DNA of 64,000 nt from an uncultured Candidatus Saccharibacteria bacterium (GTDB taxonomy: Bacteria > Patescibacteriota > Minisyncoccia > Phycocordibacterales > JACOZG01): contig CAYUVV010000001.1 of assembly GCA_964448295.1 (NCBI GenBank), positions 23,838-87,837 of the forward strand, read 5' to 3'. Position numbers and translations under genes: made by a program. This document shows positions 9,276-64,000 of this stretch, piece after piece. Under the pieces are notes generated by a model that saw nothing but the letters and a program-made list of their open reading frames with translations, was not told the DNA's origin and ran no database searches. How positions within the stretch are numbered: position 1 is the first letter of the stretch; each line of letters starts with the position of its first letter.

Positions 9276-9518
9276 ATGAGCAAGGGTCCTTTTGCGAAAG
9301 CGGCTACCGGCGAAGTTCTACGGTTTCTTGGCGCTGAGAGATTGTATGGCGCGTTATATGCCCGACTTCAGACGGTGGGTTCCAACGATTCCTATCTCCG
9401 CCCAATTTCCAAGGCAGTTCGGGATTTGGGATCGAAACACCCGAGTTTTGAAGAGGTTCAGTCGTTGGCAGAGGAGTATCGCCGGCAAATGAAAGAGGCG
9501 AATGCTTGCTTGTCCTAG
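9276..9518 (+). CDS. Hypothetical small protein (80 aa)
   Basis: ATG at 9276 preceded by GGAGGA with 5-nt spacing, and followed by a rho-independent terminator. Confidence 0.45.
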   Translation: MSKGPFAKAATGEVLRFLGAERLYGALYARLQTVGSNDSYLRPISKAVRDLGSKHPSFEEVQSLAEEYRRQMKEANACLS

Positions 9519-9532
9519 CTTCACATTACCGA

Positions 9533-9569
9533 CCCCTCGTCTCCAACAGGAGACGCGGGGCGGTTTTTT
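9533..9569 (+). terminator. Rho-independent terminator
   Basis: Stem CCCCTCGTCTCC / GGAGACGCGGGG with a 4-nt loop, then CGG and TTTTTT. Confidence 0.6.
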
Positions 9570-9603
9570 GTGATCGTCGATTGGGTTGTGCTATACTTTT
9601 TTT

Positions 9604-10209
9604 ATGCACCAGTTACCCTCCTTGCCTTACGAATACAACGCCCTCGAGCCGCACATTGATGAAGCGACGATGCGTTTGCATCACGGCAAACATCATCGTG
9701 GTTACGTTGATAAATTGAACGCCGCGCTCGAAAAATATCCTGTTTGGCAAGAGAAAACCCTCGACGAGCTCTTGCTTAACTTGAAAGCGTTACCCGAGGA
9801 GATCAAGGAGACGATAGCGAATAACGGTGGTGGGCATTATAACCACAGTTTGTTCTGGACCTTGCTGGCTCCGGCCGCTGGCTCGATGTCTGGTCCGGGC
9901 GCGCTGATTCTTAAGCTACTTGAAAAAGATTTTACTAGTTTAGAAAATTTTAAAAGAATTTTTACGGAGACCGCGCTAAAAGTTTTTGGTTCTGGCTGGG
10001 TGTGGCTCGTCAAAGACGGAGCGCAGAAATTAGTTGTTATTAGTTTGCCCAACCAAACCACTCCGATAACTTACGGCCAACCAATCTTGGGCTTGGATGT
10101 GTGGGAGCACGCTTATTATCTTAAGTATCAGAACCGGCGAGCGGATTACATAACGGCCTTTTGGTCGGTGGTTAACTGGCGCGAGGTGGAAAAGCGCCTT
10201 ACCTCTTGA
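9604..10209 (+). CDS. Fe/Mn-family superoxide dismutase
   Basis: LPSLPYEYNALEPHIDEATMRLHHGKHH and DVWEHAYYLKYQNRRADYI motifs. Start chosen at MHQLPSLPY. Confidence 0.85.
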   Translation: MHQLPSLPYEYNALEPHIDEATMRLHHGKHHRGYVDKLNAALEKYPVWQEKTLDELLLNLKALPEEIKETIANNGGGHYNHSLFWTLLAPAAGSMSGPGALILKLLEKDFTSLENFKRIFTETALKVFGSGWVWLVKDGAQKLVVISLPNQTTPITYGQPILGLDVWEHAYYLKYQNRRADYITAFWSVVNWREVEKRLTS

Positions 10210-10243
10210 TTTAAGTAAAATAGTGTGTTAGCTTGTAAAAATT

Positions 10244-11194
10244 ATGGAGGATCTCAATAAAAATCAGATAGTTTTGTTGACCTTACTCGTTAGTTTCGTT
10301 ACTTCAATTGCGACGGGCATCGTGACGGTTACGTTGATGGACCAGGCGCCGGCCGGGGTAACGCAAACCATCAACCAAGTGGTGGAGCGAACAATCGAAC
10401 GGGTGGTGCCGGCGGAAACACAGACGACGACCGTGATTCGGGAGGTGCCCGTAGTTGTAACAGAAGAAGAGCAGGTGGTTAAAGCCGTGGCCGCGGCCTC
10501 ACCAGCCCTGGTGCGCTTGGCGCTCGTGCCGGAGAAAGATGATCTGTTGGTAATTGAGGCAGTGGCGATCGGGTTTATCACTGGCGATTCCGGTTTGATC
10601 ATTTCTAGCCAGCCGATTTTTCCCATTTCTGCCGCCGTGCCGGTTGCGGCCACGAAAAAATTAACGACGGAGCCAAACAAATTGCACGCCGTGCTCGCTG
10701 ATGGACGATCTTTGCCGATTAAACCAATTGGGGACAATCTGCTTACCCGTTTGGGCGAGGGTGGGTCGGCGAGCCAAAACGCTCGTGGCGTTAGCGCTTG
10801 GCAAATTGATTTGTCGGCGGAAGAGGTAGCCAAATTGCCGCATGTTGATATGTCTCTTGATCAGCTCGTTGTCGGCCAAAGGGTTTTGGCTTTGGGGTTG
10901 GACGCTTCCGGCCGGCCGTTGGTGGAAGATGGTATTGTTTCAGGCGGGCCGGCCTTATCGGCTATCGGTGGGAGAATGGCCACAACGACCGCTACCACCA
11001 CTCCAACCATTCCTCCAGCGGTTGGAAATTTCTTGATTATCACCGACGCGGTGACGGCCGAAAATGCCGGCGGCCCGCTTTTGAGTTTGAGCGGTCGAGT
11101 GGTGGGTGTTAATTTGTCGGCCGGTCGCGCTCTGCCGAGCGCGACCTTGCTCGCTCTGCTTGCCGAGGCTGTTAACGACGCAACGAGCCGCTAA
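10244..11194 (+). CDS. Membrane protein with a degenerate, probably inactive, trypsin-like (S1C/HtrA-type) domain
   Basis: N-terminal TM helix. The C-terminal ENAGGPLLSLSGRVVGVNLSAG matches the HtrA GNSGGPL...GINTA block, but the catalytic Ser is Ala and the His region reads ...ISSQ. Confidence 0.4.
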   Translation: MEDLNKNQIVLLTLLVSFVTSIATGIVTVTLMDQAPAGVTQTINQVVERTIERVVPAETQTTTVIREVPVVVTEEEQVVKAVAAASPALVRLALVPEKDDLLVIEAVAIGFITGDSGLIISSQPIFPISAAVPVAATKKLTTEPNKLHAVLADGRSLPIKPIGDNLLTRLGEGGSASQNARGVSAWQIDLSAEEVAKLPHVDMSLDQLVVGQRVLALGLDASGRPLVEDGIVSGGPALSAIGGRMATTTATTTPTIPPAVGNFLIITDAVTAENAGGPLLSLSGRVVGVNLSAGRALPSATLLALLAEAVNDATSR

Positions 11195-41800: not shown

Positions 41801-44800
41801 ATGGATAGACAGAGTAGCTCACTTTCTCTCGCCGGCGTCTTTTTGGCTGCCCTTTTGTTTGCTTTAGCGCTATGGGCCGGCACCTACATCCCGATTGATA
41901 GTTTGGTTAGCGGTAGCAATCGTTTGGCGGTTGAGAAACAGTTGGCGCAAGTCGGTGGTGGCCCAACCACGGTTGTCTTGTCGGCCGCCGCGGATGCCGC
42001 CGTCCGCGGCGGCAACTTTCAGACCATAAATTACGGTAGCGGAAACGAGTTGGGAATATATCAAGCGGGTGGCCAGTGGGACATCCAACCCTATCTCCGT
42101 TTTGACCTATCTAATATTTCTGGCAATGTTACTGCCGCTCGTCTGCGTTTTTACATTGTCAATGGCGACGACTCGTCATCGCCCCGTCCGGTGAGCCTTC
42201 TCGCCGTAGACGACAATTCTTGGGATGAGACAAGTTTAAACTGGCAAAATCGGCCCAGCACCGGTTCCGCCCTCGGCTCTTTTGCTTTTGGATCAGAGAC
42301 GAGCACTTTTACCGGCTGGCAGGATGTAACCAATTATGTGTCGGGGAAGGTTGCGGCTGGCGCGGCTTCTTTTGCTCTGCGTCATAGCGCGGGCGGCGAG
42401 TATGCCGGCATTGCTTCTCGTGAGTCTGGGCAGCCGGCCGAACTGGAGGTGACTTATGACTCGACGGTGGTTACGCCGCCCACCACCCGCACGCTTGCCA
42501 CCACGGCTAATCCCAGCGCCGGTGGCACTATCAGCCGCCAACCGAATCAGACGAACTACCCTGACGGGAGCGTCGTCACCCTCACCGCCACTCCCAATCC
42601 GGGCTACCAATTCAATAACTGGTCAGGCGATCTCTCTGGCTCACAAAATCCGGTTTCGGTTCAGCTCACGCAAGACAAAACCGTGACGGCCAATTTTGGA
42701 GTGACGTCGCCGAGCGGTGGGAATAGCGGTTACGATCTAACTTGGTCTACTTATTTTGGCGGTTCAGGCGAAGATACAGTGCGTGACGTGGTTGTCGACG
42801 CTGGCGGTAATGTTTATGTGACCGGGGGTACTGGTTCTAGTAATTTTCCGCTAGTCAACCCTGCCCAACCCGCTTTTGGCGGCAATCATGATGTTTTTGT
42901 CTCCAAATTTGGCGCCAACGGCGCCCTGCTGTGGTCAACCTATCTCGGTGGTCCCGGTTACGATCGAGCTTACGCGGTGGAACTGGACGGCGTCGGTAAC
43001 GTCTATGTGGCCGGCCGGGCGGGTAGCGGTTTTCCGGTGACGTCGGGCGTTTTGCAGGCGACCTTTGCCGGCGATTCCAATGTTAATAATAACTATGGCC
43101 CACAGGATGGCTTTGTTGCTAAGTTTAATTCCAACGGGCAGAAACTGTGGGCAACCTATCTCGGCGGGCCAGACCGCAGTTTTATCCGAGACATTGACGT
43201 GGATTCTTCTGGCAACGTTTACGCTGTTCTTACTGACGTTTCCCAATCAAACGGATACCAAACGACTGGCGCTTATCAAGGAACGGTTGCCGGTGGCGCT
43301 AACGGCTTTATCGCTAAATTGAATTCAGCCGGTACGCAAATCCAGTGGGGAACTTATGTTGGCGGCGCATCGAGTGGTCCCGGGTTTGGCACTCCCTCGA
43401 TCCGGGTGGCAAGCAACGGCGAAGTGGTTGCGATGGGAACAAGCGCTTTTGCTGGTGACCCAGTCAGCAACGGTTTGCGCTCCCATGCCGGCGCTTTGGA
43501 TATGTACGTTTTACGCTTGAGCAGTGATGGCCGGACGCGGCGTTGGTCTACTTATCTTGGCGGGAACGCTGACGAATTTTCGGAAACACATTCATTGGCC
43601 CTTAACAGCGCTGGCGATGTCTATGCTGCTTTTACCACTCGCTCTAGCAATTTGCCCGGGGCGGGCGTTGGTTACCAACTAGCGTTAGGTGGAGTCTCTA
43701 ATACCGGCAATTATAACGGCGACGGTTTTGTCGCTAAATTGTCTGGTAACGGTGGAGTCCTGCTTGCCGCCACTTATCTCGGTGGCAGTTCGGGTGACGG
43801 CCTCGAGGGGGTGGGAGTAGACAGCGCTGGGGGTGTTTATGTAAGTGGGGGAACCTTCTCCGCTGATTTCCCAATTACGAGCGACGCGCGGCAAAATAGC
43901 CGCCGGGGCGAAGCAGATTGGTTTGTCTCTAAACTGACCGGCGATCTATCTTCTCTTGTTTACTCCACTTACCTTGGTGGCACCTCGAACTGTGCGGCAG
44001 CCGGAGACACGGTTTGTGATTATGCCCGTAGCGCCACAGTAAATGCCGGCGGGGATTTTTATGTTGTTGGCCATACTAATTCTAGTAATTTCCCGACGCT
44101 TGGGGCTACGCCAAGTCTTAGTACTAACCCCGCCGGGAGTAATGTCAATACCGGGGCGATTGCCAAATTTTCTACCGGCGGAGTAGTTGTCCCGCCTACG
44201 GATTACACGATTACCGCGTCTGTTAGTGGTGGTAACGGCACAATTAACCCGAGCGGCGTGGTTACTGTTTCGGCTGGCGGCTCGCGCACGTTCACTTTCA
44301 GTCCGGCCACTGGTTTTCAAGTCGGAACAGTGGTGGTTGATGGAGCTACCCTGACGCCCCCGCCTCCCACTTATACCTTTTCCAATGTTTCGAGCGCGCA
44401 CACAATAACAATTAGTTTTTCTCCCGTTGCACCCACCACCCGCACGCTTGCCACCACGGCTAATCCCAGCGCCGGTGGCACTATCAGCCGCCAACCGAAT
44501 CAGACGAACTACCCTGACGGGAGCGTCGTCACCCTCACCGCCACTCCCAATCCGGGCTACCAATTCAATAACTGGTCAGGCGATCTCTCTGGCTCACAAA
44601 ATCCGGTTTCGGTTCAGCTCACGCAAGACAAAACCGTGACGGCCAATTTTGGAGTGGTTCAAGCGGTTCAGCCTCTTTTGTTGCGTTTGGAATTTGATGA
44701 CGATAATGCCGACGGCGTGGCCACCGACTCTTCTTCCTTTGGGAACAACGGGACTTGTGTTGGCGCTGTTTGCCCACGTTACTTGAGTGCGGGGAGCGAG

Positions 44801-53385: not shown

Positions 53386-54265
53386 TCTCTATACCCATCG
53401 AGAGGCCAACACGCGCAAGACCTGGATCTTGATGGGCACGTTTCTGGTGGTGGTTATCGCCCTCGGCTGGCTTTTTAGCGTTGTTTGGCAGAGTCAAACG
53501 ATTTTATATGTGGCGGTAATTTTTGCCGTTTTAACCAATTTTTTTAGCTACTGGTACTCGGATAAATTGGTGATAACGATGACGGGTGCGCGGCCGGCCC
53601 GCCGCGAAGAGTTTTTTGACCTTTACACGATGGTGGAAAACCTTTCGATTACCGCCGGTCTTCCGATGCCTAAAGTTTATGTGGTCAATGACCCATCTCC
53701 CAACGCTTTTGCCACCGGTCGCGACGAAAAGCACGCGGTGGTGGCTGTAACAACCGGCCTGCTTCGGGTTTTGAATCGGACGGAGTTGGAGGGAGTCATC
53801 GCTCACGAACTTTCACATATTGGTAATCGTGATATGTTGGTAGCCACCGTGGCGGTGGTGCTCGCCGGTTTCGTCGCTATTTTGGGCGATATGTTTATCC
53901 GCTCTCGCTTTTTGCCATCGAGTGATAGAGAGGGGGGTCGTGTTGGTGGCGCCTTGGCCGTGGTTGCCTTGTTAGCCGCCATCCTCGCGCCGCTCGGCGC
54001 CACCTTAATCCGCCTAGCCATCTCGCGGCGGCGCGAATTTCTCGCCGACGCATCTGGCGCTTTGCTAACTCGCTATCCAGAGGGTTTGGCGAGCGCTCTG
54101 CAAAAAATTAGCCAAAACGGCCAACCAATGCGCCGAGTCTCCGGTGCCACGGCCCATCTCTTTATCGCCAATCCTTTTGGTCCACGAGCCAGCGCTCTCT
54201 CTGCTTTGTTTATGACTCACCCCCCGGTGGAGAAACGGATCGCCGCCCTGCTCGGTTTGCGTTAA
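53375..54265 (+). CDS. htpX: M48-family zinc metalloprotease HtpX
   Basis: TM helices and the HExxH motif in VIAHELSHIGNRDM. Confidence 0.85.
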   Translation: MTSNLYTHREANTRKTWILMGTFLVVVIALGWLFSVVWQSQTILYVAVIFAVLTNFFSYWYSDKLVITMTGARPARREEFFDLYTMVENLSITAGLPMPKVYVVNDPSPNAFATGRDEKHAVVAVTTGLLRVLNRTELEGVIAHELSHIGNRDMLVATVAVVLAGFVAILGDMFIRSRFLPSSDREGGRVGGALAVVALLAAILAPLGATLIRLAISRRREFLADASGALLTRYPEGLASALQKISQNGQPMRRVSGATAHLFIANPFGPRASALSALFMTHPPVEKRIAALLGLR

Positions 54266-54275
54266 AATAAAAGCG

Positions 54276-54836
54276 ATGGTTTTGACTGACAAGATTTTGG
54301 CAGAAACTTTTCTGCCGATGTTGCCGCGTTACGTTCTGCCCAATCACGTGACGGTTTTCCGTTTTGTGCTCATCCCGATTGTGCTGGTTTTGCTTTATTT
54401 CGATTATCGCTTGCTCGGACTCCTCTTTTTTGCGCTGGCCGCGTTTTCCGATGCCGTTGATGGCGCTTTGGCCCGCACCCGCCATCAGATTACCGAATGG
54501 GGGACGCTCTATGATCCATTAGCGGACAAATTGCTAGTTAGCTCTGTCGCGGCTCTCGTGGTGACGCGGGTTTTCGGTTGGCGTTTGGCTTTGGCGATTA
54601 TCGGGATGGAATTTTTGATTATTCTGGGCGCGCTCTATTACCGTCGGCGTTCAGGCAAAGTAATTTCGGCTCACCCGGCCGCCAAGTTAAAAATGTTCTG
54701 CCAGTCCTGTGGTTTAATCTGCTTGTTCCTGTACCTCCTCTGGCCAGTGCCGGGGCTCCTCCTTGCGTCTTACTATCTTCTCCTTGCGGCTGTTGTTCTG
54801 GCCGTCATCAGTTTTTTCATTTACCAATCAATTTGA
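54276..54836 (+). CDS. CDP-alcohol phosphatidyltransferase (PgsA-like)
   Basis: Signature DAVDGALARTRHQITEWGTLYDPLADK. Confidence 0.8.
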   Translation: MVLTDKILAETFLPMLPRYVLPNHVTVFRFVLIPIVLVLLYFDYRLLGLLFFALAAFSDAVDGALARTRHQITEWGTLYDPLADKLLVSSVAALVVTRVFGWRLALAIIGMEFLIILGALYYRRRSGKVISAHPAAKLKMFCQSCGLICLFLYLLWPVPGLLLASYYLLLAAVVLAVISFFIYQSI

Positions 54837-54867
54837 TTTGCCTCTGATTTGTGGCAAGATAGCGAGC

Positions 54868-54955
54868 GGAGGGTTCGCATAGTGGTCTAGTGCGCTCGCT
54901 TGGAGAGCGAGTATGCTGCAAGGCATCAAGGGTTCGAATCCCTTACCCTCCGCCA
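54868..54955 (+). tRNA. tRNA-Ser(GGA), CCA encoded
   Basis: 88-nt type II tRNA. Acceptor GGAGGGT/ACCCTCC, anticodon loop TTGGAGA, variable-arm hairpin, T-arm AAGGG-TTCGAAT-CCCTT, G-CCA. Confidence 0.85.
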
Positions 54956-55960
54956 ATTTGCACATTCGCCGATTTGGGGATTGGTTGCCTCGCGGCTTCG
55001 CCGCTCGGCATTGAATTTTGCGGGGATTTTCCAAGCATTTTTCAAATCCAAAACCAACGCCCGATCGGCAATGCGAAAGTTCGAACCAATCTTTTTGAGA
55101 AAATCCCGTCCCGCGACGGGATTTTCTTGCAAGGCGATATTTTCGGCTTGGTCGGCTTCTTTTATGAAATCAATCATGGGTTCGAACCGATTATTGCTCT
55201 TTCGCTCAAAAGCGTTGATTTTTTCTTCCAAATCCTTTTTAGCGAGAATGAGCTTGTGCTTTTTGGCGGCGTACTCCGTTTGTGAAAGCGAGCCGTCCAA
55301 ATGTAAATCTAAAAGTTTGTCTATCTTGCTTTCCATTTCTACAAGCTCATCTCGCGTCTTTTGAGCGAAAGAGCTTTCTGCTTGGGCGGTTTCCAGTTTT
55401 TCTTTTTCCAGTTCGTTTATGCAATTTTCCGCCCAAGCAGAACACAAAGAAACTTTTTGAATTTCATTTTTGATCTGCGAGGTGATGGCGTCCTCCCGTA
55501 CATACCTTTGCTCACAGCGGACTTTTCTTTTGGTGCACCGCAAGTAGTTATGTCTTTTCTGCGTTTCAGTGGTGATAAAACAACCGCACCCGCCACAGCG
55601 GAAAAGTCCGCGATAGATATATGGTTTGAGTTTTGGCGTTTTAGGTTTTGATTTTCTCGCCATCACCTCTTGGCATTTATCAAAAAGTTTCTTTGTGATA
55701 ATCGGTTCGTGCTTTCCGTCATACAATTCGCCATTGTACTCAATTACGCCGTAGTAGATTTTATTTTTGAGTATGTACTGGTAATTGGAGACGGAAAGCA
55801 CCTTGCCTTTCTTGCCAACCAAGCCCAAGGAATTGATAATCTTTCGGATTTGAGCTAGGGGATATTCGCCAGTTGAGTACATTTCAAAAGCCCGCTTGAT
55901 AAACTTTGATTTTTCTTTGTCCACAACTATTTTGCGGCTACAAATTGAAATAATCTCCAA
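54926..55960 (-). pseudogene. Large serine recombinase lacking the N-terminal catalytic resolvase domain (truncated integrase remnant)
   Basis: Starts at the recombinase domain (YPLAQIRKIINSLGLVGKKGKVLSVSNYQYILKNKIYYG). It has a zinc ribbon CGGCGCFITTE...LRC and a coiled-coil tail. The last 10 codons are antisense to the tRNA-Ser 3' end. Confidence 0.6.
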
Positions 55961-56023
55961 AATTTGCTATACTTGTTTTGTAGGTAGAGAAGTAAATCTC
56001 TCATAACTCTATACTATCAAAGT

Positions 56024-56230
56024 TTGGATATTATGGCAACAATAGCACAAAACCTAAAACGAATACGAACAAAACAAGGATTGACGCAGGACGACTTGGC
56101 GAAGAAAGCCAATATCAAATACTCTACCCTTACCAAAATTGAGGGTGGTGTCGTTACCAAGCCAAGTGTTCAAACCATTGCAAAAATCGCCAAGTCGTTA
56201 GATGTTTCGGTTGAAGATCTGCTAAAATAA
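56024..56230 (+). CDS. XRE-family helix-turn-helix transcriptional regulator
   Basis: HTH_3 pattern RIRTKQGLTQDDLAKKANIKYSTLTKIEGG. Confidence 0.8.
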   Translation: MDIMATIAQNLKRIRTKQGLTQDDLAKKANIKYSTLTKIEGGVVTKPSVQTIAKIAKSLDVSVEDLLK

Positions 56231-56288
56231 AGATACCCGATTATTGATAGCCATTGTTAGCAATTTACAAAAGGTGTAATATATAAAT

Positions 56289-56813
56289 ATGGAATTTATC
56301 AAGAAAAATATAACTTTGGTTGTCGGTATATCCATACCGATACTGATGATACTTTTTGTCGCTGGGAGTATTTACTTGCCCGGGCTTTTTATACAACCAA
56401 AGTTCAATTTTCTCTATGCGAGCGGTGATGATTATTACTACTACTACAATCAATACCAATACTCTGTGCAAAATGGGAAACTTGTGAGAAGCGAGCGGCA
56501 AAGACCAGAAGGTCAAACTTATCCCCCAGAGAGAGAAGTTAAATTATATGTCCACGATGTCGCAAAAAATGAGAGCCGCGAAATTTCTTTTGAAGAAACA
56601 CAAAATTTGACCCTTGACTCAAACACAAAATCGCCAGATGAATTTGAGGTTGTACATGGAAGCCGTGGCGATGGCTTTTTTCCATTCTTCTTTTGGTCGG
56701 AAAGGGATTACAATACACGATATCTCAAAGGTCATAATGTGAGTAAAAAATTAAATCTCCAGTTGAGCGGGTCATATTACAATAATTTCCGCTTTATTGG
56801 CTGGATAAAATAA
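56289..56813 (+). CDS. Hypothetical membrane-anchored protein
   Basis: 174 aa with an N-terminal TM helix. Tyr-rich and AT-rich. Confidence 0.5.
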   Translation: MEFIKKNITLVVGISIPILMILFVAGSIYLPGLFIQPKFNFLYASGDDYYYYYNQYQYSVQNGKLVRSERQRPEGQTYPPEREVKLYVHDVAKNESREISFEETQNLTLDSNTKSPDEFEVVHGSRGDGFFPFFFWSERDYNTRYLKGHNVSKKLNLQLSGSYYNNFRFIGWIK

Positions 56814-56818
56814 AATCT

Positions 56819-57805
56819 ATGGCAACCAAAGAAGAAGTTTTGCAATATATCCGTTCACTCGCCGAGCAAAAAATCATCACGAAAGATGAACTTACCGAGG
56901 CGTACGATTCGGGAAGCGGTATAAAGCAAGATGTTGTTTTAACGAAAAAGCTCGGTGTCGCAGAAATTTTGTACTACATTGGCGGCGCGATTGTATTTTT
57001 GGGAATTTCAATTTTGCTTTGGCAAAATTGGTCAACGCTTGGATTTGGAACAAAGGTATTAGCGACACTCGGATCCGGTATCGCGGCGTATTTCGTCGGT
57101 CTGCTGTTCAGCAGAGACGAGCGAACCGAAACTGCTGGCTCTGCTTTCTACCTTATTTCTGCTCTTGTCACGCCGATTGGTCTTTGGGTTGTGTTTGATA
57201 ACGCAGGATTTGACGCCAGTAGTTACGCTTCGCAGAGTCTGATTTCGGGAATACTGTTAGGTACTTATTTGCTTTCATTCCTCGTTTTCCGAAAAAACAT
57301 CTTTACTCTGTTTAGTATTTTATTTGGCACTTGGCTTTTCTTCAGTTTAACGAGTTGGATGGTAGGCGGCGCGCCATACTTCGATGATTGGAAGTTTTAC
57401 ATGTACCGCGTTCTTGTCGCCGGAGTCGCTTATATTCTCATGGGCTACGCCTTCTCGAAAAATGAGCGTGCCCCACTTTCCGGATTTCTGTATGGTTTTG
57501 GGATTTTGGGCGTTCTCGGTTCGGCTCTTGCTCTTGGTGAATGGAAACCGAACCAAAATGTATTTTGGGAATTGATTTATCCGGGGCTTGTTTTTGGGGC
57601 ACTATTCTTGAGTGTCCATATCAAGAGCAAGGCATTTCTGACGTGGGGCACGCTCTTTCTCATGGCCTACATTCTCAAAATTACATCAGAGTATTTCTCA
57701 ACGGGTCTTGGTTGGCCGCTCGCTCTCGTTATTTCTGGCCTCGCCATGATTGGAGTTGGCTATATGTCGCTCTCAATCAAAAAGAAGTACCTCTCTTCTC
57801 AATAG
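56819..57805 (+). CDS. Hypothetical polytopic membrane protein with an N-terminal soluble domain
   Basis: 328 aa with about 8 TM helices. Confidence 0.5.
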   Translation: MATKEEVLQYIRSLAEQKIITKDELTEAYDSGSGIKQDVVLTKKLGVAEILYYIGGAIVFLGISILLWQNWSTLGFGTKVLATLGSGIAAYFVGLLFSRDERTETAGSAFYLISALVTPIGLWVVFDNAGFDASSYASQSLISGILLGTYLLSFLVFRKNIFTLFSILFGTWLFFSLTSWMVGGAPYFDDWKFYMYRVLVAGVAYILMGYAFSKNERAPLSGFLYGFGILGVLGSALALGEWKPNQNVFWELIYPGLVFGALFLSVHIKSKAFLTWGTLFLMAYILKITSEYFSTGLGWPLALVISGLAMIGVGYMSLSIKKKYLSSQ

Positions 57806-57844
57806 TATAGCCGCAAAAATTTTTCGCCGTGGGAGCGAGGGCGC

Positions 57845-57877
57845 GGCGGAAGGGGGGGGTGTGGGGGGAATTCCGCC
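57845..57877. repeat. G-rich hairpin repeat, copy 1 (GGCGGAA-GGGGGGGGTGTGGGGGGAA-TTCCGCC)
   Basis: A palindromic GGCGGAA/TTCCGCC stem encloses a G8-TGT-G6 loop. A similar copy lies at 61954. Confidence 0.6.
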
Positions 57878-57922
57878 GCGCCCGAGCGTAGTCCCGCCGC
57901 CCGCGCGCCAGCGCGGAGCCGA

Positions 57923-58000
57923 GCAGAACATTTTGCCTGTCCTTTTAGAAGAATTTTTTGGTGGCGCGCGCAAAATCAAAATGAAGGGCAAAATGTTATG
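57923..58000. repeat. Imperfect direct repeat, left copy (TCCTTTTAGAAGAA...GCGCGCGCAAAATCA)
   Basis: About 75% similar to 60975..61055 in the same orientation. Both copies lie just outside the 106-bp inverted repeats. Confidence 0.5.
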
Positions 58001-58027
58001 CGAGGCAGGCCGCCGCTTGCGGCGGCT

Positions 58028-58133
58028 GGCGGCGGGGCTGGCTCCGGCTCGCAGGCGAAAAGTTTCCTCCCCCAACCCCCCTCCACTTTTTGCCTGCTCG
58101 CTGGGGAAAAATTACACGTCAGATTGACGAGAT
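58028..58133. repeat. Perfect 106-bp inverted repeat, left copy (IR-L)
   Basis: Exact reverse complement of 60845..60950. It contains a C5AAC7 tract and ends with TTGACGAGAT at its inner edge. Confidence 0.9.
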
Positions 58134-58176
58134 GATGATTTACGAAAACCTTCAACAATTATATTGTAACATTACA

Positions 58177-58881
58177 ATGGAATCTAATAAAGATATAAAA
58201 CGCAAAATTATTCCTATAGGTGGTGGCTTATTGCGTTTGGGCGAAACGATTTTGATAGATAAGTTTATTGTAAAAGAAAGCGGAAAAAAAAATCCGAACG
58301 TTTTATTTATACCCACCGCAAGTAAAGATTTGCCAGCATACTCTGCCGTTTTTCGTCGTGTGTATGAAAAATTAGGGTGCCGAGTAAAAATCTTACGTTT
58401 ATTTAATAAAAGAAAATTCTCTCGAACAACAGTGAAGGAACTCATCACAAATGCCGATATTATTTATGTCGGCGGTGGTGATTATGACACCTTGTTTTCA
58501 GTATGGAAGAAACATAAAATTGTTCCTTTCATACAGTCAGCATACCAACAAGGAACTATCCTCACCGGGTTAAGTGCGGGGTGTGCCATCTGGTATGAGT
58601 ATCTCGTAGACAGGGATAAAAACAAAAAACCCCACCTTAAAATAGGTCTCGGCATACTTAAGGGTGCCGTGATTCCTCACTATAAAAGTGAGAATACATT
58701 TCCTCCTAAAATTGATAAGACAAAAACCCTTATTACTGCCATTGAAGATAGGTGTGCGGTGATATACATTGATGAACACCTAAGAGGTTCTGTGCCAGTA
58801 GCCAAAGAAAAAGCCTTTACAATTCGCCCTCCTTATGTTAAAAAGATAGGGGTAACTTTGTACTTTCACAAATCGCGTTAA
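58177..58881 (+). CDS. S51-family serine peptidase (dipeptidase E / cyanophycinase-like)
   Basis: IIPIGGG ... IYVGGGDYDTLFSVW ... LTGLSAGCAIWYEY, matching the S51 Ser-nucleophile region. Upstream in-frame ATGs at 58132/58135 lie inside IR-L. Confidence 0.65.
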   Translation: MESNKDIKRKIIPIGGGLLRLGETILIDKFIVKESGKKNPNVLFIPTASKDLPAYSAVFRRVYEKLGCRVKILRLFNKRKFSRTTVKELITNADIIYVGGGDYDTLFSVWKKHKIVPFIQSAYQQGTILTGLSAGCAIWYEYLVDRDKNKKPHLKIGLGILKGAVIPHYKSENTFPPKIDKTKTLITAIEDRCAVIYIDEHLRGSVPVAKEKAFTIRPPYVKKIGVTLYFHKSR

Positions 58882-58900
58882 ACCAAAAAGGAGGTGGCAA

Positions 58901-59968
58901 ATGATCTCGAAAATCCCGCGCCCCCTCCAATTCGGAGATGGGGTGGCTTTGGTCAATCCGGCAGGAGTGCTTCCGGAGCGGTTCAAAAACCAACACGGAT
59001 ACGTCAAGGCACATCTTGAGGAACTTGGATTCGCGGTAAAAGACCTCGTAATCGAAAGTGGCTGGGAGGACGCACAAAGACGCAGCGAAACACTAATGTC
59101 GGCTTTCACCGACCCACAAGTGAAAGCGGTACTGCCTCTTTGTGGCGGTATAAGAATTTACGACGTTCTTCCGCTGATTGATTACGAGGTGTTAGCTAAT
59201 CATCCGAAGATCATCTGTGGTTCAAGCGAGCTTTCGGCTCTTGTGGTGACGATTGCTGAGAAGGCGGGCATTGTAACGTTTTTCGGTCCGCACCTGAACT
59301 TTCTGAACCCAAAGGCGTCAAAACTTGAGAACAGATTCACGGTAAGGAGCTTTTGGAATATGCTCCAATGGGATTGGCACGGAAGAAACGGCTTGAGCAA
59401 GAACGAGGCGTATCACTTTTTCGCCGCACCTCGAAAGCCAACGCTTCCGGTAACAGTTCGTAACATTTACCGTGACCCGACGCTCATCATAGACGACCGC
59501 TACAGGGACAATTTCTACTTCACCACTTCTAGTATGGATGTGACTGGAAAGCTCTTGATCGGATCACTTGCGGTCATGGCGAAGCTTTGTGATGAAGGCT
59601 TGTGTCCCGATGTAACGGATAAGATCGTCATGCTCGATTCGCTGGATATGTCATTCGAAACGATTGTCGAATTGATCCAGCGCTTCAATGCTCACTGCGA
59701 TCTTTCCCGCGCCGCAGCTGTTGTCTTTTCCTCGCTCGCCGAGAGGACGGATCGAAAGAATCGCTTGCATCCGGAATTGAGAGATTCTGATCGGGTGAAG
59801 GGTTTTCTTCAGGAAGTCTCGGGACTTCTTAGAGGAAGGCCGCCGCTCTTTCACGGTTTTCCCGTTGGACACTGTACGTACAAACTCACTCTGCCGATTG
59901 GGATTACCGCCTCCATCGTTGTGGAAACGGGCGACTTGCTACTCACGGAGTTCCCGCATCAACAATAA
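58901..59968 (+). CDS. S66-family LD-carboxypeptidase (LdcA / microcin-C7 immunity MccF-like)
   Basis: 355 aa. ICGSSELSALVV matches the S66 nucleophile-Ser block. A GGAGGTG SD lies upstream. Confidence 0.6.
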   Translation: MISKIPRPLQFGDGVALVNPAGVLPERFKNQHGYVKAHLEELGFAVKDLVIESGWEDAQRRSETLMSAFTDPQVKAVLPLCGGIRIYDVLPLIDYEVLANHPKIICGSSELSALVVTIAEKAGIVTFFGPHLNFLNPKASKLENRFTVRSFWNMLQWDWHGRNGLSKNEAYHFFAAPRKPTLPVTVRNIYRDPTLIIDDRYRDNFYFTTSSMDVTGKLLIGSLAVMAKLCDEGLCPDVTDKIVMLDSLDMSFETIVELIQRFNAHCDLSRAAAVVFSSLAERTDRKNRLHPELRDSDRVKGFLQEVSGLLRGRPPLFHGFPVGHCTYKLTLPIGITASIVVETGDLLLTEFPHQQ

Positions 59969-60003
59969 AGGCCGAATAGAATTTGTTCTATTCGGCCTTT
60001 TTA
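59967..60003. terminator. Bidirectional rho-independent terminator between convergent genes
   Basis: Perfect 13-bp stem AGGCCGAATAGAA / TTCTATTCGGCCT with a 4-nt loop, flanked by AAA on one side and TTTT on the other. Confidence 0.8.
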
Positions 60004-60777
60004 CTTTTCCGCAAGGAGGTCATTGATGAACCGATCGTTCTCATAAGCTACGCCGTATTCGAGGTTCAACGCCATGAGTTGAAGGCGTTCCCGAAGCACG
60101 GCATCGTGACTCAGTCGCTCAGCAAGAGTCACCAGCGCCTCTCTCGTTTCTTTCTTGTAGTTTTGGAGTTTGATGTACACCGCATTCCGAAAGAATATAA
60201 CGAGATTAAGATCGGAAGCGTTGAGAGAATCAAACTTTGCTCGGTCAAGTTCGTAAGCTAGTTCGCGACGCATGGCGAGCATGAGTTCAAGATATGCTGA
60301 TGAAGCCTCTTGAACCCGCCGTTTACCTACCAACTCAACGAAGCGTGACGTTGCAGTATCGACCGTGTCGCCGGAAAAGATTTTGCAACCGAACGATACG
60401 GTAACATCCTCATCAGCGAGATGAGCGTTTTCTCTGATGAAGTTGTTAACCTCATCTTCCAACAGTGAGAAAAACTCGTTTACGACCGCCTCGTTAGTTG
60501 CTACTCCGGTAGCGAAGATTTCTTCTCCCGAAGGAATCATGCAAAACACCGGAATTACTTTTGGGTGCTTCTTGATAAACCCATACATGAACGCGCCAAT
60601 GAGGCGATTGTAGATGTCTACAAGATTTTCCGCCAATGGCCGTCCGTATCGCGATACGAAGACTCCAAGATTGTCGAGATCTCCAGTGACCCCAAATAGA
60701 AACAGATCTCGATTGCGGTCATAGGCCTCGACAACTTTCAAAACCTTTCTGCTCCAGATACGCTGGTGCTTTTTCAT
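60001..60777 (-). CDS. Stand-alone GGDEF-like nucleotide cyclase (palm) domain protein with an SGEEI active-site variant and a ~90-aa helical C-terminal extension
   Basis: The GGDEF-fold blocks appear in order: DLDNLGVFVSRYGRPLAENLV (like DIDHFKxINDTFGHxxGDEVL), CMIPSGEEIFATG (like RYGGEEF) and DVTVSFGC (like TISIGV). No sensor domain or I-site RxxD. Strong SD AAAGGAGA. Confidence 0.55.
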   Translation of the reverse strand: MKKHQRIWSRKVLKVVEAYDRNRDLFLFGVTGDLDNLGVFVSRYGRPLAENLVDIYNRLIGAFMYGFIKKHPKVIPVFCMIPSGEEIFATGVATNEAVVNEFFSLLEDEVNNFIRENAHLADEDVTVSFGCKIFSGDTVDTATSRFVELVGKRRVQEASSAYLELMLAMRRELAYELDRAKFDSLNASDLNLVIFFRNAVYIKLQNYKKETREALVTLAERLSHDAVLRERLQLMALNLEYGVAYENDRFINDLLAEK

Positions 60778-60825
60778 AAGTCATCTCCTTTTCTGTTTTG
60801 TGAATGTGCTGTATGAACTTGCCAT

Positions 60826-60854
60826 ATATTACATTATCTTTTTAATCTCGTCAA
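60826..60854 (-). promoter_or_regulatory. Near-consensus promoter TTGACG-17-TAATAT for the GGDEF-like gene, with the -35 inside IR-R
   Basis: On the minus strand the -35 TTGACG is the inner end of IR-R, followed by a 17-nt spacer and TAATAT. The same TTGACG ends IR-L, facing the S51 gene. Confidence 0.45.
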
Positions 60855-60950
60855 TCTGACGTGTAATTTTTCCCCAGCGAGCAGGCAAAAAGTGGAGGGG
60901 GGTTGGGGGAGGAAACTTTTCGCCTGCGAGCCGGAGCCAGCCCCGCCGCC
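60845..60950. repeat. Perfect 106-bp inverted repeat, right copy (IR-R)
   Basis: Exact reverse complement of 58028..58133. Confidence 0.9.
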
Positions 60951-60974
60951 TGCCGAACGTTCTCGGCAGAGACC

Positions 60975-61055
60975 CGCAGAAAAATGTTCTCATCCTTTTA
61001 GAAGAAAAAATCGGGCGCGCGCAAAATCAGAAAAGCGGAGAACATTTTTCTGCGG
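60975..61055. repeat. Imperfect direct repeat, right copy, followed by a second GGCGGCGGGGC motif
   Basis: Same orientation as the copy at 57923-58000. It is followed by GGCGGCGGGGCGG, resembling the outer end of IR-L. Confidence 0.5.
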
Positions 61056-61515
61056 GGCACGCGAGCGAAGCGAGCGGCGGCGGGGCGGTTCAGTCCTCGT
61101 CCGGATGTTCGTCAAAGTAGGTTCGGATTTTAACCAAAAGGTACCGCCAATTAGGAATTTTCAAAGGGTTTTTTGGCGAAAAAGAAATGCTTTTATCAAT
61201 CAAAATATGGTTCGAGCCGATTTATTTTAAAAATGTTGTCATTTCTCCGTTATCCCTAGATTTAAATAAATTTTCCGCTTGATTCAAGGATTTAATCCAC
61301 GCACGAGCCAGTTCGAGCCAAGACACGGTCCATACGCTTACACAGCTCACGATATGGGCTATGGTGGATGGATTCATTGGGATTCGTCGGGGGCGGCTTT
61401 TTACTAGTATCCAACAAATCCGCCATTGTTCACGGTAGATTTTTATACCTGCAAAACTTCTGTTATACTGAAACGTTGTATGAAATTGTGTTTTTTACTT
61501 TTATAATAGTTACCA

Positions 61516-61817
61516 TGGAACAACAAATTAAAGAAATTTTCCAAACAAGAGACAGAGCAGTCGCTGAAAAAAATAAGGACTTGCTTTTATCAACTCAAAT
61601 TAATGAAATTCCAAAATCAGGGAGCGATGGTTACCTAAAAACTGACAAACTTGTTTCTAAAGTATTGTATATCCATCAGGATGATAAAGATTTACAGCTC
61701 TATCTTGCTTTGATACAAGAGGATTATTTTTACAATGGTAAATTTTCCCATAGAGGTTATTTACTTTATAAATTAAGAAACGACGGAAAATTATTAATTA
61801 CCGAAATAATATGGTAA
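61516..61817 (+). CDS. Hypothetical small protein (~100 aa)
   Basis: Start chosen at MEQQIKEIF. AT-rich. The track ORF starts at 61368. Confidence 0.4.
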
Positions 61818-61953
61818 AAACACAACATCACATAACAGCAAACGTTAAAGGAAATAGAATTTACCGCCAAACTGGGCAAAGCCCAGAGTTCCGCTAAAAG
61901 CGGAACAAAAAACTTGAAATCGTCCAATCCGAAAGGGTCGCTTCTGCGGTCGG

Positions 61954-61988
61954 GCGGAAGGGGGGTTTGGGGGGAATTCCGTCCGCCC
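61954..61988. repeat. G-rich hairpin repeat, copy 2 (GGCGGAA-GGGGGGTTTGGGGGGAA-TTCCGTCCGCC)
   Basis: Direct, imperfect copy of 57845..57877. Confidence 0.6.
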
Positions 61989-62191
61989 TACAAATTTAGG
62001 GCGAAATCAGTTCAAATTTTTTCGAAAGCACGCCGCCGGTCGCTAAGGGCAAAAGAAATTTTTTCATACTGAATTTTCTCAATAGTCGGCAAGATTGTCG
62101 ACTATTGACTTTTATTGTGTAATATGCTATCTTTGAATGAAATCTGGGCATGGTGCTTAGATAATTTGAACCTTGAAAACGGAGGTAAAAA

Positions 62192-62464
62192 ATGAGCAGA
62201 AAGAACTGGTACTTGGTGTACACGCACACCAACGAGATGGAAGCCGGAACGTTTCGTGACGGTATCGAAGACATGGAAGTCGCTTTGAAAGCGACCACCG
62301 AAGCCGAAGCTGTCGCGGAAGCGGAATCGAAGTGGGCTGAGATCGTCAAGGAACGCGACGAGTATTGGGAGAAGTGCAAGAAGACATGGGCACATCCTCC
62401 CGCCAGTCCAACCGAGTGGGGCGCTCGCAACCCTCGTGTCATCTACAAAATCTCGCTACAATGA
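62192..62464 (+). CDS. Hypothetical acidic small protein
   Basis: 90 aa with a strong SD (ACGGAGGTAAAAA-ATG). G+C is higher than the adjacent island DNA. Confidence 0.5.
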   Translation: MSRKNWYLVYTHTNEMEAGTFRDGIEDMEVALKATTEAEAVAEAESKWAEIVKERDEYWEKCKKTWAHPPASPTEWGARNPRVIYKISLQ

Positions 62465-62475
62465 GGAGGATGACG

Positions 62476-63096
62476 ATGACACCCGAACAACGCTGGGCGA
62501 CCCTGTGGCAACGCCTCGGTGCGCAAGGGGACGCAAACGCGGTCTACAACGGCCTTGTTGTGCGATACTCCGAACCGCACCGAGCGTACCACACGCTCGA
62601 ACACATCGGACACTGCATCGACGAACTCGAACAAGTCCGGCACCTCGCAGCAAATTCTGATGCTGTGGAGTTGGCTCTCTGGTATCACGACGCAATCTAC
62701 GATACCAAAGCCAAGAACAGCGAGGAGCGGAGTGCGGCGCTCGCGGTGGAAATGGTGAGAAGTGCTTCGTTGCCCGGCAACCTCGGTCAATCGGTAGCGA
62801 GTCTCATCATGGCAACGAGACACACCGCAGTTCCCACCGACCCCGATGTTCAGCTTCTCGTGGACATCGATCTCTCGATCCTCGGGCAAACCGAGGCGAG
62901 ATTCGATGAATACGAGCGGCAAGTTCGCAAGGAGTACGAGTGGGTGCCGGAAGATCAGTTTGTTGCCGGACGGTCGGCGATACTCAAGTCGTTTATCGAC
63001 CGACCGAACATCTACTCGACGCAGTTCTTCCGCAACAAATACGAAGCGCAAGCCAGAGCGAACATCGTTCGATCGCTTGCCCGCCTCCGGGCGTAA
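62476..63096 (+). CDS. HD-superfamily metal-dependent phosphohydrolase-like protein
   Basis: H...H, HD and D motifs (AYHTLEHIGHC ... LALWYHDAIYD). SD AGGAGG lies 6 nt upstream of the ATG at 62476. Confidence 0.55.
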   Translation: MTPEQRWATLWQRLGAQGDANAVYNGLVVRYSEPHRAYHTLEHIGHCIDELEQVRHLAANSDAVELALWYHDAIYDTKAKNSEERSAALAVEMVRSASLPGNLGQSVASLIMATRHTAVPTDPDVQLLVDIDLSILGQTEARFDEYERQVRKEYEWVPEDQFVAGRSAILKSFIDRPNIYSTQFFRNKYEAQARANIVRSLARLRA

Positions 63097-63099
63097 CAT

Positions 63100-63137
63100 G
63101 GGCACTTCTCGCAAGAGGGTGCCCATTCTTCTTTTTG
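63100..63137 (+). terminator. Rho-independent terminator
   Basis: GGGCAC...GTGCCC stem followed by ATTCTTCTTTTTG. Confidence 0.5.
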
Positions 63138-63180
63138 AAAGAACTATTTTGTGCGTGCTTCGCACGCTCGAATTTGTATT

Positions 63181-63205
63181 CCGCCAAAGAAAAATTGGAA
63201 ATTGT
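63181..63205. repeat. 25-nt exact repeat copy B (CCGCCAAAGAAAAATTGGAAATTGT)
   Basis: Identical to 14965..14989. Confidence 0.6.
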
Positions 63206-63315
63206 CAGTGTGCGCGGCGAGGATCAAATTCCGTTCGAGCTATTTTTAAAATACACCGCCAAGAATTACATTTCGAAAAATCAAGGTTGGAAGCCTCGGC
63301 GCAAAGCGCCTCGGC

Positions 63316-63346
63316 ATTGAATTATTACTCGTGATTAGGTTATAAT
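63316..63346 (+). promoter_or_regulatory. Promoter TTGAAT-18-TATAAT, 10 nt upstream of the ATG (near-leaderless)
   Basis: Exact TATAAT at 63341-63346, with the ATG at 63357. Confidence 0.45.
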
Positions 63347-63356
63347 CCTTCTCATC

Positions 63357-64000
63357 ATGTCATTCTTTAAGAGATTGGGTAAGAGCGTTTACGGGCCCGA
63401 TTATTATCAGCAAGAAGTGTTTACAGAGTCGGGCAAACGGGCTTTCGGCTATTATGAAAAGTTAATTTTATTATTGGCATTGATTACCGGCTTGGTAGCG
63501 ATGGTGACGATGGGTTGGCCGATATCAAAATACGGTCCCGACTGGTTGCAAGAGGTCGAGCAAATTTACCCCGATGATCTGGTGATCGAAATGCGAGAGA
63601 GTCGCTTAACGGCCAACGGCGGTGAGCTCTATTCCGTATCGTTCGACCAGATTTTAGGTACTGATTTTCTAACTTGGCTTGAAGATGATGAGCGGTCGGA
63701 GGATTTACCAACCAATCTCGTTGTGTTCAACACCGGTGCGGGCAAAACCGATTTAGAGTCGTTCGAGACGGCCGATACTCTGATGTTGGTTGGCGGCGAA
63801 AGCATGATTTATCGCGAAAATAATGGCAAAGTGGTGATCCAAAGTTTTAGCCGTTGGCCCGACTTTACTCTTGATAAAGCGAAGGTTGTAGCCAAATTCG
63901 ATCGGTTGTCTAATTTAACGCCGTGGGCTGTGCCGGTCTTTTTTGTTTTGGCATTTATCGGCGGCCTGCTGATTGGCAACACTGTTTGGTTGTTGTTTGC
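63357..64000 (+). CDS. Hypothetical membrane protein, 3' partial (runs off the window)
   Basis: Open frame from ATG 63357 to the window end, with TM helices (LILLLALITGLVAMV; WAVPVFFVLAFIGGLLIG). Confidence 0.5.
   Translation, partial: MSFFKRLGKSVYGPDYYQQEVFTESGKRAFGYYEKLILLLALITGLVAMVTMGWPISKYGPDWLQEVEQIYPDDLVIEMRESRLTANGGELYSVSFDQILGTDFLTWLEDDERSEDLPTNLVVFNTGAGKTDLESFETADTLMLVGGESMIYRENNGKVVIQSFSRWPDFTLDKAKVVAKFDRLSNLTPWAVPVFFVLAFIGGLLIGNTVWLLF

Follow-up and report, generated by a model that had tools for sequence, protein, structure and literature searches.

Much of the signalling and immunity of bacteria depends on palm-domain cyclases and polymerases, such as the GGDEF proteins, Cas10, mCpol and the class III cyclases, and each new branch of the palm so far has brought new chemistry, for example cGAMP, cyclic oligoadenylates, SAM-AMP and 2′,3′-c-di-AMP. 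In the Panoptes systems, stand-alone mCpol enzymes signal to a partner effector (PMC12657230, PMC12657218). Also among the closest known systems are the microcin C (mcc) clusters: processed microcin C is an isoaspartyl-nucleotide whose carboxamide bond is hydrolysed by the serine peptidases MccF (family S66) and MccG (family S51), and stand-alone homologues of these confer resistance (Yagmurov et al., PMC9239234). Here we describe a locus in which a palm-type protein is encoded together with one peptidase of each of these two families. It lies in 64,000 nucleotides of an uncultured Candidatus Saccharibacteria bacterium (contig CAYUVV010000001.1 of assembly GCA_964448295.1, positions 23,838 to 87,837), the whole of which is hereafter called the window. 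The gene in question, the palm gene, had been singled out by an original prediction, made from the sequence letters, as encoding a sensor-less GGDEF-like protein.

The palm protein represents a new family, so far unannotated, of the GGDEF/Cas10 palm superfamily, and belongs to neither of the two Pfam families. This placement follows from the absence of any library match combined with a palm-type fold and faint sequence bridges. The family is unannotated in any library searched, carries a new accessory domain, and is tightly linked, by genomic position and by gene fusion, to two peptidase families. The partner set is undescribed, having neither a PADLOC match nor a literature: no paper joins GGDEF with MccF, the combination of GGDEF-like, S66 and S51 yields noise only, the sole paper in which “cyanophycinase” and “LD-carboxypeptidase” are found together surveys the serine proteases of fungi, and one mCpol/Panoptes paper searched for “peptidase” or “protease” gives purification reagents only.

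The palm protein and its family

The palm gene and its signals are as follows (window coordinates).
60001..60777, minus strand: palm gene, 258 amino acids (palm plus helical domain), ATG start, stop codon included
Residues ~25-150 of the protein: palm domain, with catalytic-type D33/D35 and G84-E85-E86
Residues 155-256 of the protein: helical domain, with invariant R170, D178, K181, F182, R197 and K208
60778..60825, minus strand: conserved 5′ untranslated leader (alignment of 7 upstream regions)
60826..60854, minus strand: sigma-70-type promoter, TTGACG, 17 nt, TAATAT (consensus scan)
59967..60000, both strands: bidirectional intrinsic terminator hairpin, 15-bp stem with T-runs on both strands (two-strand terminator scan)

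The open reading frame (ORF) is present exactly where the original prediction had put it, and its promoter, Shine-Dalgarno sequence, terminator and homologues establish it as a real gene. The promoter is near-consensus, with TTGACG invariant and the -10 hexamer and spacer conserved among the seven genomes aligned, and its -35 hexamer is situated at the inner end of the right arm of an inverted repeat that is described below. The leader holds the Shine-Dalgarno sequence AAGGAG at 60785-60790, and the terminator hairpin, which separates the convergent S66 and palm genes, is 94% identical in two further loci (L001 and L004). A riboswitch or other known RNA was considered for the leaders and repeats and rejected, as their comparison with Rfam gave no credible family match. 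In a word-indexed protein database 49 homologues were found at 42-100% identity, and an exhaustive profile search of 1.84 billion representatives extended the family to 85 clusters at 50% identity, whose members, where they are named by their sources at all, are called “hypothetical protein”.

Searched against Pfam, NCBIfam, PADLOC and PDB sequences, the palm protein gives no match even at E ≤ 10. The membership in the GGDEF family that the original prediction had proposed is therefore unsupported, Pfam GGDEF being silent at this cut-off and the curated threshold of PF00990 not being reached, and canonical GGDEF proteins are not among the sequences that the palm family profile reaches when searched exhaustively. 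Likewise, neither the mCpol profile nor PF22335, the second palm domain of Cas10/Cmr2, gives an above-threshold match, and the GGDD motif is absent from the palm protein. Faint links appear when 63 members of the family are scanned singly against Pfam: PF22335 gives sub-threshold matches in eight of them (best E 4.6e-4) and PF00990 in three (best E 0.013), both lying in register. A broad family profile (A2) likewise finds two GGDEF chains among PDB sequences (E 0.036 and 0.23), in register at GEE and SFG. With hhalign, the family compared with PleD alone, or with PleD plus the Hypr GGDEF domain of 6d9m (GacA), is not significant (probability ≤2%), register being kept only at the GEE and SFG motifs; a further PDB query for GGDEF sequences returned PleD variants only. 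The sole match of the close-family profile among PDB sequences, a helix of ribosomal protein uL29, was dismissed as spurious.

The predicted structure carries the assignment further. A confident AlphaFold2 model from a 29-sequence alignment (pLDDT 90.5, pTM 0.83) has a GGDEF-type palm fold, composed of helix 10-21, strand 26-35, helices 37-44 and 46-69, a hairpin 77-80/87-93, helix 96-117, strand 126-133 and helix 136-151, followed by nothing except helices over the C-terminal ~100 residues. Both the C-terminal helical extension and the missing N-terminal sensor of the original prediction are borne out by the model, in which the extension spans residues 155-256 and a single helix (10-21) precedes strand β1. 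Foldseek returns GGDEF and Csm1/Cas10 matches interleaved at E 2e-3 to 3e-2, the alignments to Cas10 being the longer ones (160-206 columns), as well as a marginal match to Thg1 (3wbz_D, E 0.019, 202 columns). Of the profile and structural comparison that the original prediction had proposed as a check, the structural part thus agrees with a GGDEF-type palm, and a significant sequence match was not obtained. The helical domain, as modelled, has no structural relative and its fold appears to be new.

Conservation was read from an alignment of 70 sequences reaching down to 22% identity, in which D33, L37, R46, V53, G84, E85, E86, R170, D178, K181, F182, R197 and K208 are strictly invariant, and conservation reaches 90% or more at D35, G38, G45, D54, F129, G130 and G242. 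D33 stands at the end of β1 and E85/E86 on the β2-β3 hairpin, where they occupy the two-metal carboxylate positions of GGDEF, Cas10 and class III cyclases; as in GGDEF proteins, a metal-binding-type Asp on β1 is combined with a hairpin bearing two acids, the first Gly of the motif being S/A/G. The motif strings quoted in the original prediction are present in the protein (TGDLDNLGVFVSRYGRPLAENLVDIYN, FCMIPSGEEIFATG, FCMIPSGEEIF and DVTVSFGCKIF) and are not chance resemblances, coinciding with invariant or near-invariant columns of both the 29- and the 70-sequence alignment (D33, D35, G38, G45, R46, D54, G84, E85, E86, F129 and G130). Its Ser in place of the first Gly is likewise real in this protein, but family-wide the position merely holds a small residue (S in 47, A in 15 and G in 5 of the 70). 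The I-site RxxD is absent five residues before the motif, as had been stated, residues 74-77 reading IPVF.

Residues of PleD (sequence verified against 1w25/2wb4) were mapped onto the palm protein by motif spacing and secondary structure and not by superposition, which places D327 at D33, G339-H340 at G45-R46, and GGEEF at [S/A/G]-G-E-E-[I/V]. By the same mapping, N335, which contacts guanine, becomes V41 (Val in 66 of 70), R366 becomes I81, and D344 becomes position 50 (E in 59 and Q in 11 of 70). Because V41 and I81 take the N335 and R366 positions, the guanine-reading residues are not kept. The region of the C-terminal KxxGR(N/D) phosphate motif (K442/R446 in PleD) is replaced by the helical domain, whose invariant R170 and K181 might substitute for it. 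The strict invariance of the acidic triad indicates the pattern of an active enzyme, from which we infer catalysis, and the full invariant set, consisting of the triad, G84, R46 and four basic residues, argues for an active site rather than a degenerate domain.

Two serine peptidases as conserved partners

58901..59968, plus strand: S66 serine peptidase, MccF/LdcA family, 355 amino acids (Pfam Peptidase_S66 and S66C), triad S109 - D/E246 - H324
58177..58881, plus strand: S51 serine peptidase, cyanophycinase/PepE/MccG family, 234 amino acids (Pfam Peptidase_S51, 6.4e-37)
58139..58167, plus strand: candidate promoter of the S51-S66 unit, TTTACG, 17 nt, TATTGT (block conserved in 6 genomes)

The strongest functional clue is the identity of the partners. 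The original prediction had placed the gene next to peptidases and treated this as an oddity of location; the observation was correct and understated, the peptidases being conserved partners and not incidental neighbours. In the window the palm gene is convergent to S51-S66, and the same layout recurs in other genomes between unrelated flanks. Among 27 loci analysed, drawn from 25 species-representative loci and others fetched, S66 adjoins the palm gene in 23 and the S51 partner is present in 14, with palm proteins 30-86% identical. Close relatives keep the convergent order; distant relatives are co-directional, as palm gene>S66 or palm gene>S51>S66>SAM-methyltransferase, with overlaps of 4-8 nt, and S51 gives way to an alpha/beta Ser_hydrolase (PF06821) in one group of Kaiserbacteria/Saccharibacteria type. 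The subfamily to which the S66 partner belongs is as small as the palm family and is located on the same contigs, and checks made in reverse, starting from S66, led to a palm-family gene with every motif in three of three cases.

The link extends to fusion of palm and S51 in two members, P0068 and P0116. That of P0068 is a clean ORF of 488 codons in the standard code, which the S66 gene follows with an 8-nt overlap, and this arrangement of palm-S51 fusion and then S66 was found on at least 10 contigs (JGI, ENA, Logan). Loci without the full association are decaying copies (L027, L028 and L030) and one solitary gene, L010, which stands between ftsW/murG-like and glycosyltransferase genes. Across the 27 loci the only conserved neighbours are S66, S51, Ser_hydrolase and the methyltransferase, with no CRISPR-Cas, CARF/SAVED or transmembrane effectors. 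One Saccharibacteria-labelled genome carries two tandem S66 paralogues after palm-S51 (L022, 7359-9474).

Both peptidases keep the nucleophile Ser and the catalytic His in all cassettes. The S66 partner has the two-domain make-up of its family with the Ser-His-Glu/Asp triad conserved at S109, D/E246 and H324. Several sources annotate it as LdcA; it scores far under the LdcA equivalog cut-off (63.8 vs 378 bits), and among PDB sequences the MccF-like 4e5s is closest (4.8e-17), followed by E. coli MccF (~2e-12) and LdcA (1.5e-11 and 8e-7). It may hydrolyse aminoacyl- or peptidyl-nucleotides, but its nucleotide-binding loop does not align reliably. The S51 partner, judged by its sequence, is probably a divergent cyanophycinase/PepE-type enzyme, cyanophycinase being its closest PDB sequence; S133 and H168 are invariant, and the third triad member is likely D191, a position with D in 10 and N in 4 of 14. 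The catalytic Ser and His are spaced as they are in MccG (133/168), and the third residue of the triad is, as in the MccG clade, probably an Asp. Its homologues begin at the Met equivalent to ATG 58177, and the mechanical ORF start at 58090, inside the repeat, is probably not used. The candidate promoter of this unit scores below the consensus-scan threshold, and an mRNA started from it would be leaderless or near-leaderless.

Compared with the mcc clusters (PMC9239234), the cassette shares peptidases of the same two families, with catalytic Ser and His conserved, and, as in mcc clusters, SAM-dependent enzymes stand beside its genes in some operons. It differs in that it has no MccA precursor, ThiF-type MccB or exporter, in that its partners are divergent from the characterised enzymes, and in that it combines S66 with S51 and both with an enzyme of palm fold, which is not known from any mcc cluster.

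Possible functions of the cassette

Our preferred reading, held tentatively and a little short of even confidence, is that the palm protein is a catalytically competent stand-alone nucleotidyltransferase of a new palm family, not a diguanylate cyclase, and that it works in one pathway with S66 and S51. D33 and E85/E86 would hold two metal ions and activate a nucleophile for attack on the α-phosphate of an NTP, and R46 together with the basic cluster of the helical domain (R170, K181, R197 and K208) would bind the triphosphate, an acidic second substrate, or both. The enzyme would then share a pathway, and probably a complex, with two cytoplasmic serine hydrolases, the MccF-like S66 and S51. 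Since both peptidase families include characterised aminoacyl-nucleotide hydrolases, the most likely common substrate would be a nucleotide-linked amino acid or short peptide, which the palm enzyme would make or modify and the hydrolases would cleave; the combination of both families with an enzyme of nucleotidyltransferase fold and, in one clade, a SAM-dependent enzyme is most economically explained in this way. Fold, conservation, gene linkage, fusion and the mobility of the cassette are shown, and catalysis, the class of substrate and the direction of the pathway are parts of the proposal, whose logic may be that of a producer plus antidote or of multi-layer detoxification. If true, it would link nucleotidyl transfer of the palm type to the metabolism of aminoacyl-nucleotides, and would amount to a new biosynthetic route or to a new layer of resistance against Trojan-horse peptide-nucleotide antibiotics, bearing on Patescibacteria, which are ultra-small importers of peptides and of whose accessory biology little is known. 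With three genes in 2.9 kb and promoters of its own, the cassette is directly testable by expression in E. coli.

A narrower version, which we think doubtful, has the palm enzyme make a toxic or signalling aminoacyl- or peptidyl-nucleotide by a route without ThiF, with the MccF- and MccG-like hydrolases as the enzymes that neutralise or reset it, in a mobile cassette of the Patescibacteria. An aspartyl-nucleotide that blocks an aminoacyl-tRNA synthetase would be an example of such a product, and the cassette would then be a small-molecule toxin-antidote or immune module of undescribed kind.

Several points weigh against the shared nucleotide-linked substrate. The function of the family is read from sequence, model and gene context, and it is assumed that the basic cluster lies close to the acidic triad. 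The families S66 and S51 are broad, other members of them cutting murein tetrapeptides, Asp-X dipeptides or cyanophycin; the S51 partner is nearest to cyanophycinase by PDB sequence, and LdcA is only modestly more distant from the S66 partner than MccF is. The cassette encodes neither a precursor peptide nor an exporter nor a ThiF-type MccB, and the lone ThiF neighbour, in L029, partners a YcaO enzyme and is not MccB. The replacement of S51 by an alpha/beta serine hydrolase in some clades loosens the argument for an Asp-specific substrate. Palm enzymes, moreover, normally activate a ribose hydroxyl, and for one of them to form an aminoacyl-nucleotide directly would be chemically unusual, the nearest precedent for a non-hydroxyl acceptor being Thg1, which adenylylates a phosphate.

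Cas10, mCpol and the CD-NTases are makers of oligonucleotide second messengers, and the palm enzyme could belong among them, producing a cyclic or linear oligonucleotide that switches the S66 and S51 peptidases on or off in a defence or stress module. We rate this as unlikely. In its favour, the fold and the weak HMM links point to the second palm of Cas10 and to mCpol, PF22335 being the best, if sub-threshold, sequence link of the family, and a helical region follows the palm in Cas10 as well. The module is compact, horizontally mobile and accessory, IS200-type transposases adjoin the palm gene in two loci, and a small stand-alone palm protein working with an adjacent partner gene has its precedent in Panoptes mCpol (OptS, PDB 9mnr; PMC12657230, PMC12657218). 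Yet both peptidases are of canonical length and consist of peptidase domains only, without a recognisable nucleotide-sensor domain; PADLOC matches neither the palm protein, S51, S66 nor the fusion; phages, plasmids and viral contigs carry no copies; the flanking genes are housekeeping genes and not defence islands; and the exchange of S51 for Ser_hydrolase while S66 stays looks more like steps of a pathway than a single effector. The diguanylate cyclase, or Hypr-type GGDEF enzyme making c-di-GMP or cGAMP, that the original prediction had suggested is very improbable. GGDEF domains are indeed the best structural matches and the hairpin bearing the [S/A/G]GEE motif is the correct one, and SGDEF and AGDEF variants of true cyclases can be active. 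Against GGDEF cyclases such as PleD, WspR, DgcZ (PF00990) and GacA, however, the palm protein shows no significant sequence, HMM or hhalign match, has Val for the guanine-contacting Asn and I81 for the pre-motif Arg, lacks the I-site and a sensor, and has ~100 residues of helical domain appended in place of the KxxGR region. The Ser at the PleD D344 position that marks Hypr enzymes is absent in all 70 sequences, which have E or Q at position 50 in a domain that is also non-canonical, and the obligatory partners are peptidases, with no c-di-GMP effectors or phosphodiesterases in the cassette.

Degenerate GGDEF domains that serve as receptors are well known, and the palm could in this manner be non-catalytic, binding a nucleotide or peptide and serving as a scaffold or allosteric regulator for two peptidases of peptide salvage or murein recycling (LdcA-type S66 and Asp-dipeptidase-type S51) in these peptide-importing bacteria. 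The annotation of S66 as LdcA by several sources, the cell-wall neighbours of the L010 palm gene and the fusion to S51, which suits a regulatory subunit, speak for such a role; the invariance of D33, E85, E86, G84, R46 and four basic residues down to 22% identity and the low score of the S66 partner as an LdcA equivalog speak against it, and we hold it to be quite unlikely. Least credence of all is given to a nucleic-acid enzyme, that is, a Thg1-like or template-independent polymerase acting on the ends of tRNA or other RNA, with the basic helical domain binding RNA. Its size of ~260 amino acids and its layout of a palm followed by a helical domain are those of Thg1, four basic residues of the helical domain are invariant, and RtcB/archease or a CCA-adding enzyme is found among the neighbours in two loci. 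The likeness to Thg1 is otherwise limited to the marginal Foldseek match, with no Pfam match, different conserved motifs and no conserved tRNA-related context.

Cassette boundaries, mobility and surroundings

58023..58133, plus strand: left arm of inverted repeat, 111 nt, 99% complementary, upstream of the S51-S66 unit (repeat search)
60845..60955, minus strand: right arm of inverted repeat, upstream of the palm gene (repeat search)

DNA similarity between genomes, at ~80% identity, is confined to the interval from 58047-58193 through 60791-60931, a block of 2.7-2.9 kb. The GC content of the cassette is steady at 0.43-0.45 among close relatives, in host flanks of 0.36-0.42 or, in this window, 0.53, which together with the confined homology fits a joint horizontal transfer of the three genes. 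They form a compact accessory cassette that we take to have moved horizontally between Patescibacteria. No copy was found in phage, plasmid or viral-contig collections, and in two unrelated loci the gene directly upstream of the palm gene encodes an IS200-like Y1 transposase (L019, 5206-5661; L021, 5166-5837).

In the window the ~2.9-kb block is bounded by the arms of the inverted repeat, shorter versions of which exist in L001 (58 nt, 81%) and L009 (39 nt, 100%). A transposon-like terminal repeat was rejected as a general explanation, the repeat being missing in L004, L007 and L008 and each unit having its own conserved promoter; it is therefore read as a duplicated upstream element. The arms are 99% identical within the genome and orthologous elements differ by ~10-20% between genomes, which suggests that the two regions upstream of the promoters have recently undergone duplication or gene conversion. 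The cassette is further flanked by GC-rich intergenic repeat elements, with GGGGGGT(G/T)TGGGGGGAATTCCG occurring twice (57854-57875 and 61960-61981; none expected by chance), and by two imperfect hairpins of related sequence with ~29-nt arms (57918-58006 and 60973-61056). The intergenic spacers at the cassette, of 328 and 590 nt, are unusually long for a small genome.

The AT-rich island of the original prediction is partly right, GC being 0.45-0.46 over ~54-64 kb against 0.53 in the rest of the window. This lower-GC stretch of ~10 kb (54000-64000; 0.455-0.464 vs 0.531) has a tRNA-Ser(GGA) at its start (54868-54955) and exceeds the cassette, holding also a DUF2157 membrane protein and several ORFs without a Pfam match, and it may be a larger acquired region. 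Outside the conserved cassette, a 243-amino-acid ORF at 62365-63096 on the plus strand has no Pfam match even at E ≤ 1 and shows HD-phosphohydrolase-like motifs (HTLEHIGH ... WYHDAIYD).

In other genomes, some genes beside the cassette deserve mention. AspRS is a target of aspartyl-nucleotide toxins, and in L026 the four-gene operon is followed after 58 nt, in the same direction, by a gene for a class IIb aminoacyl-tRNA synthetase of the Asp/Asn/Lys type (9428-10837; OB anticodon domain and tRNA-synt_2, E 1.6e-103), such adjacency being seen in this one locus only. In L029 (9785-12125) an N-terminally extended protein of the ThiF family (E 9.5e-38), followed with an overlap by a YcaO cyclodehydratase (E 1.3e-57), is directly downstream of the palm-S51-S66-methyltransferase operon, with no obvious Asn-terminal mini-ORF in the gap. 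Identification of this ThiF as MccB was rejected and not counted as support, the YcaO neighbour making the two an azoline-RiPP cyclodehydratase pair. Six loci (L013, L015, L019, L024, L026 and L029) come from metagenome-assembled genomes (MAGs) labelled Alpha- or Gammaproteobacteria or Pseudomonadales, and have low GC and Patescibacteria-like gene content, one isolate name containing “PATE”; the apparent occurrence of the family outside Patescibacteria may in part derive from mislabelled MAGs.

Elsewhere in the window, a 225-nt direct repeat is present in two 100% identical copies (42479-42703 and 44432-44656), 1953 nt apart, with a weaker 51-nt repeat nearby (42800-42850 / 44045-44095), and may represent a duplicated gene segment or genes for repeat-domain proteins.

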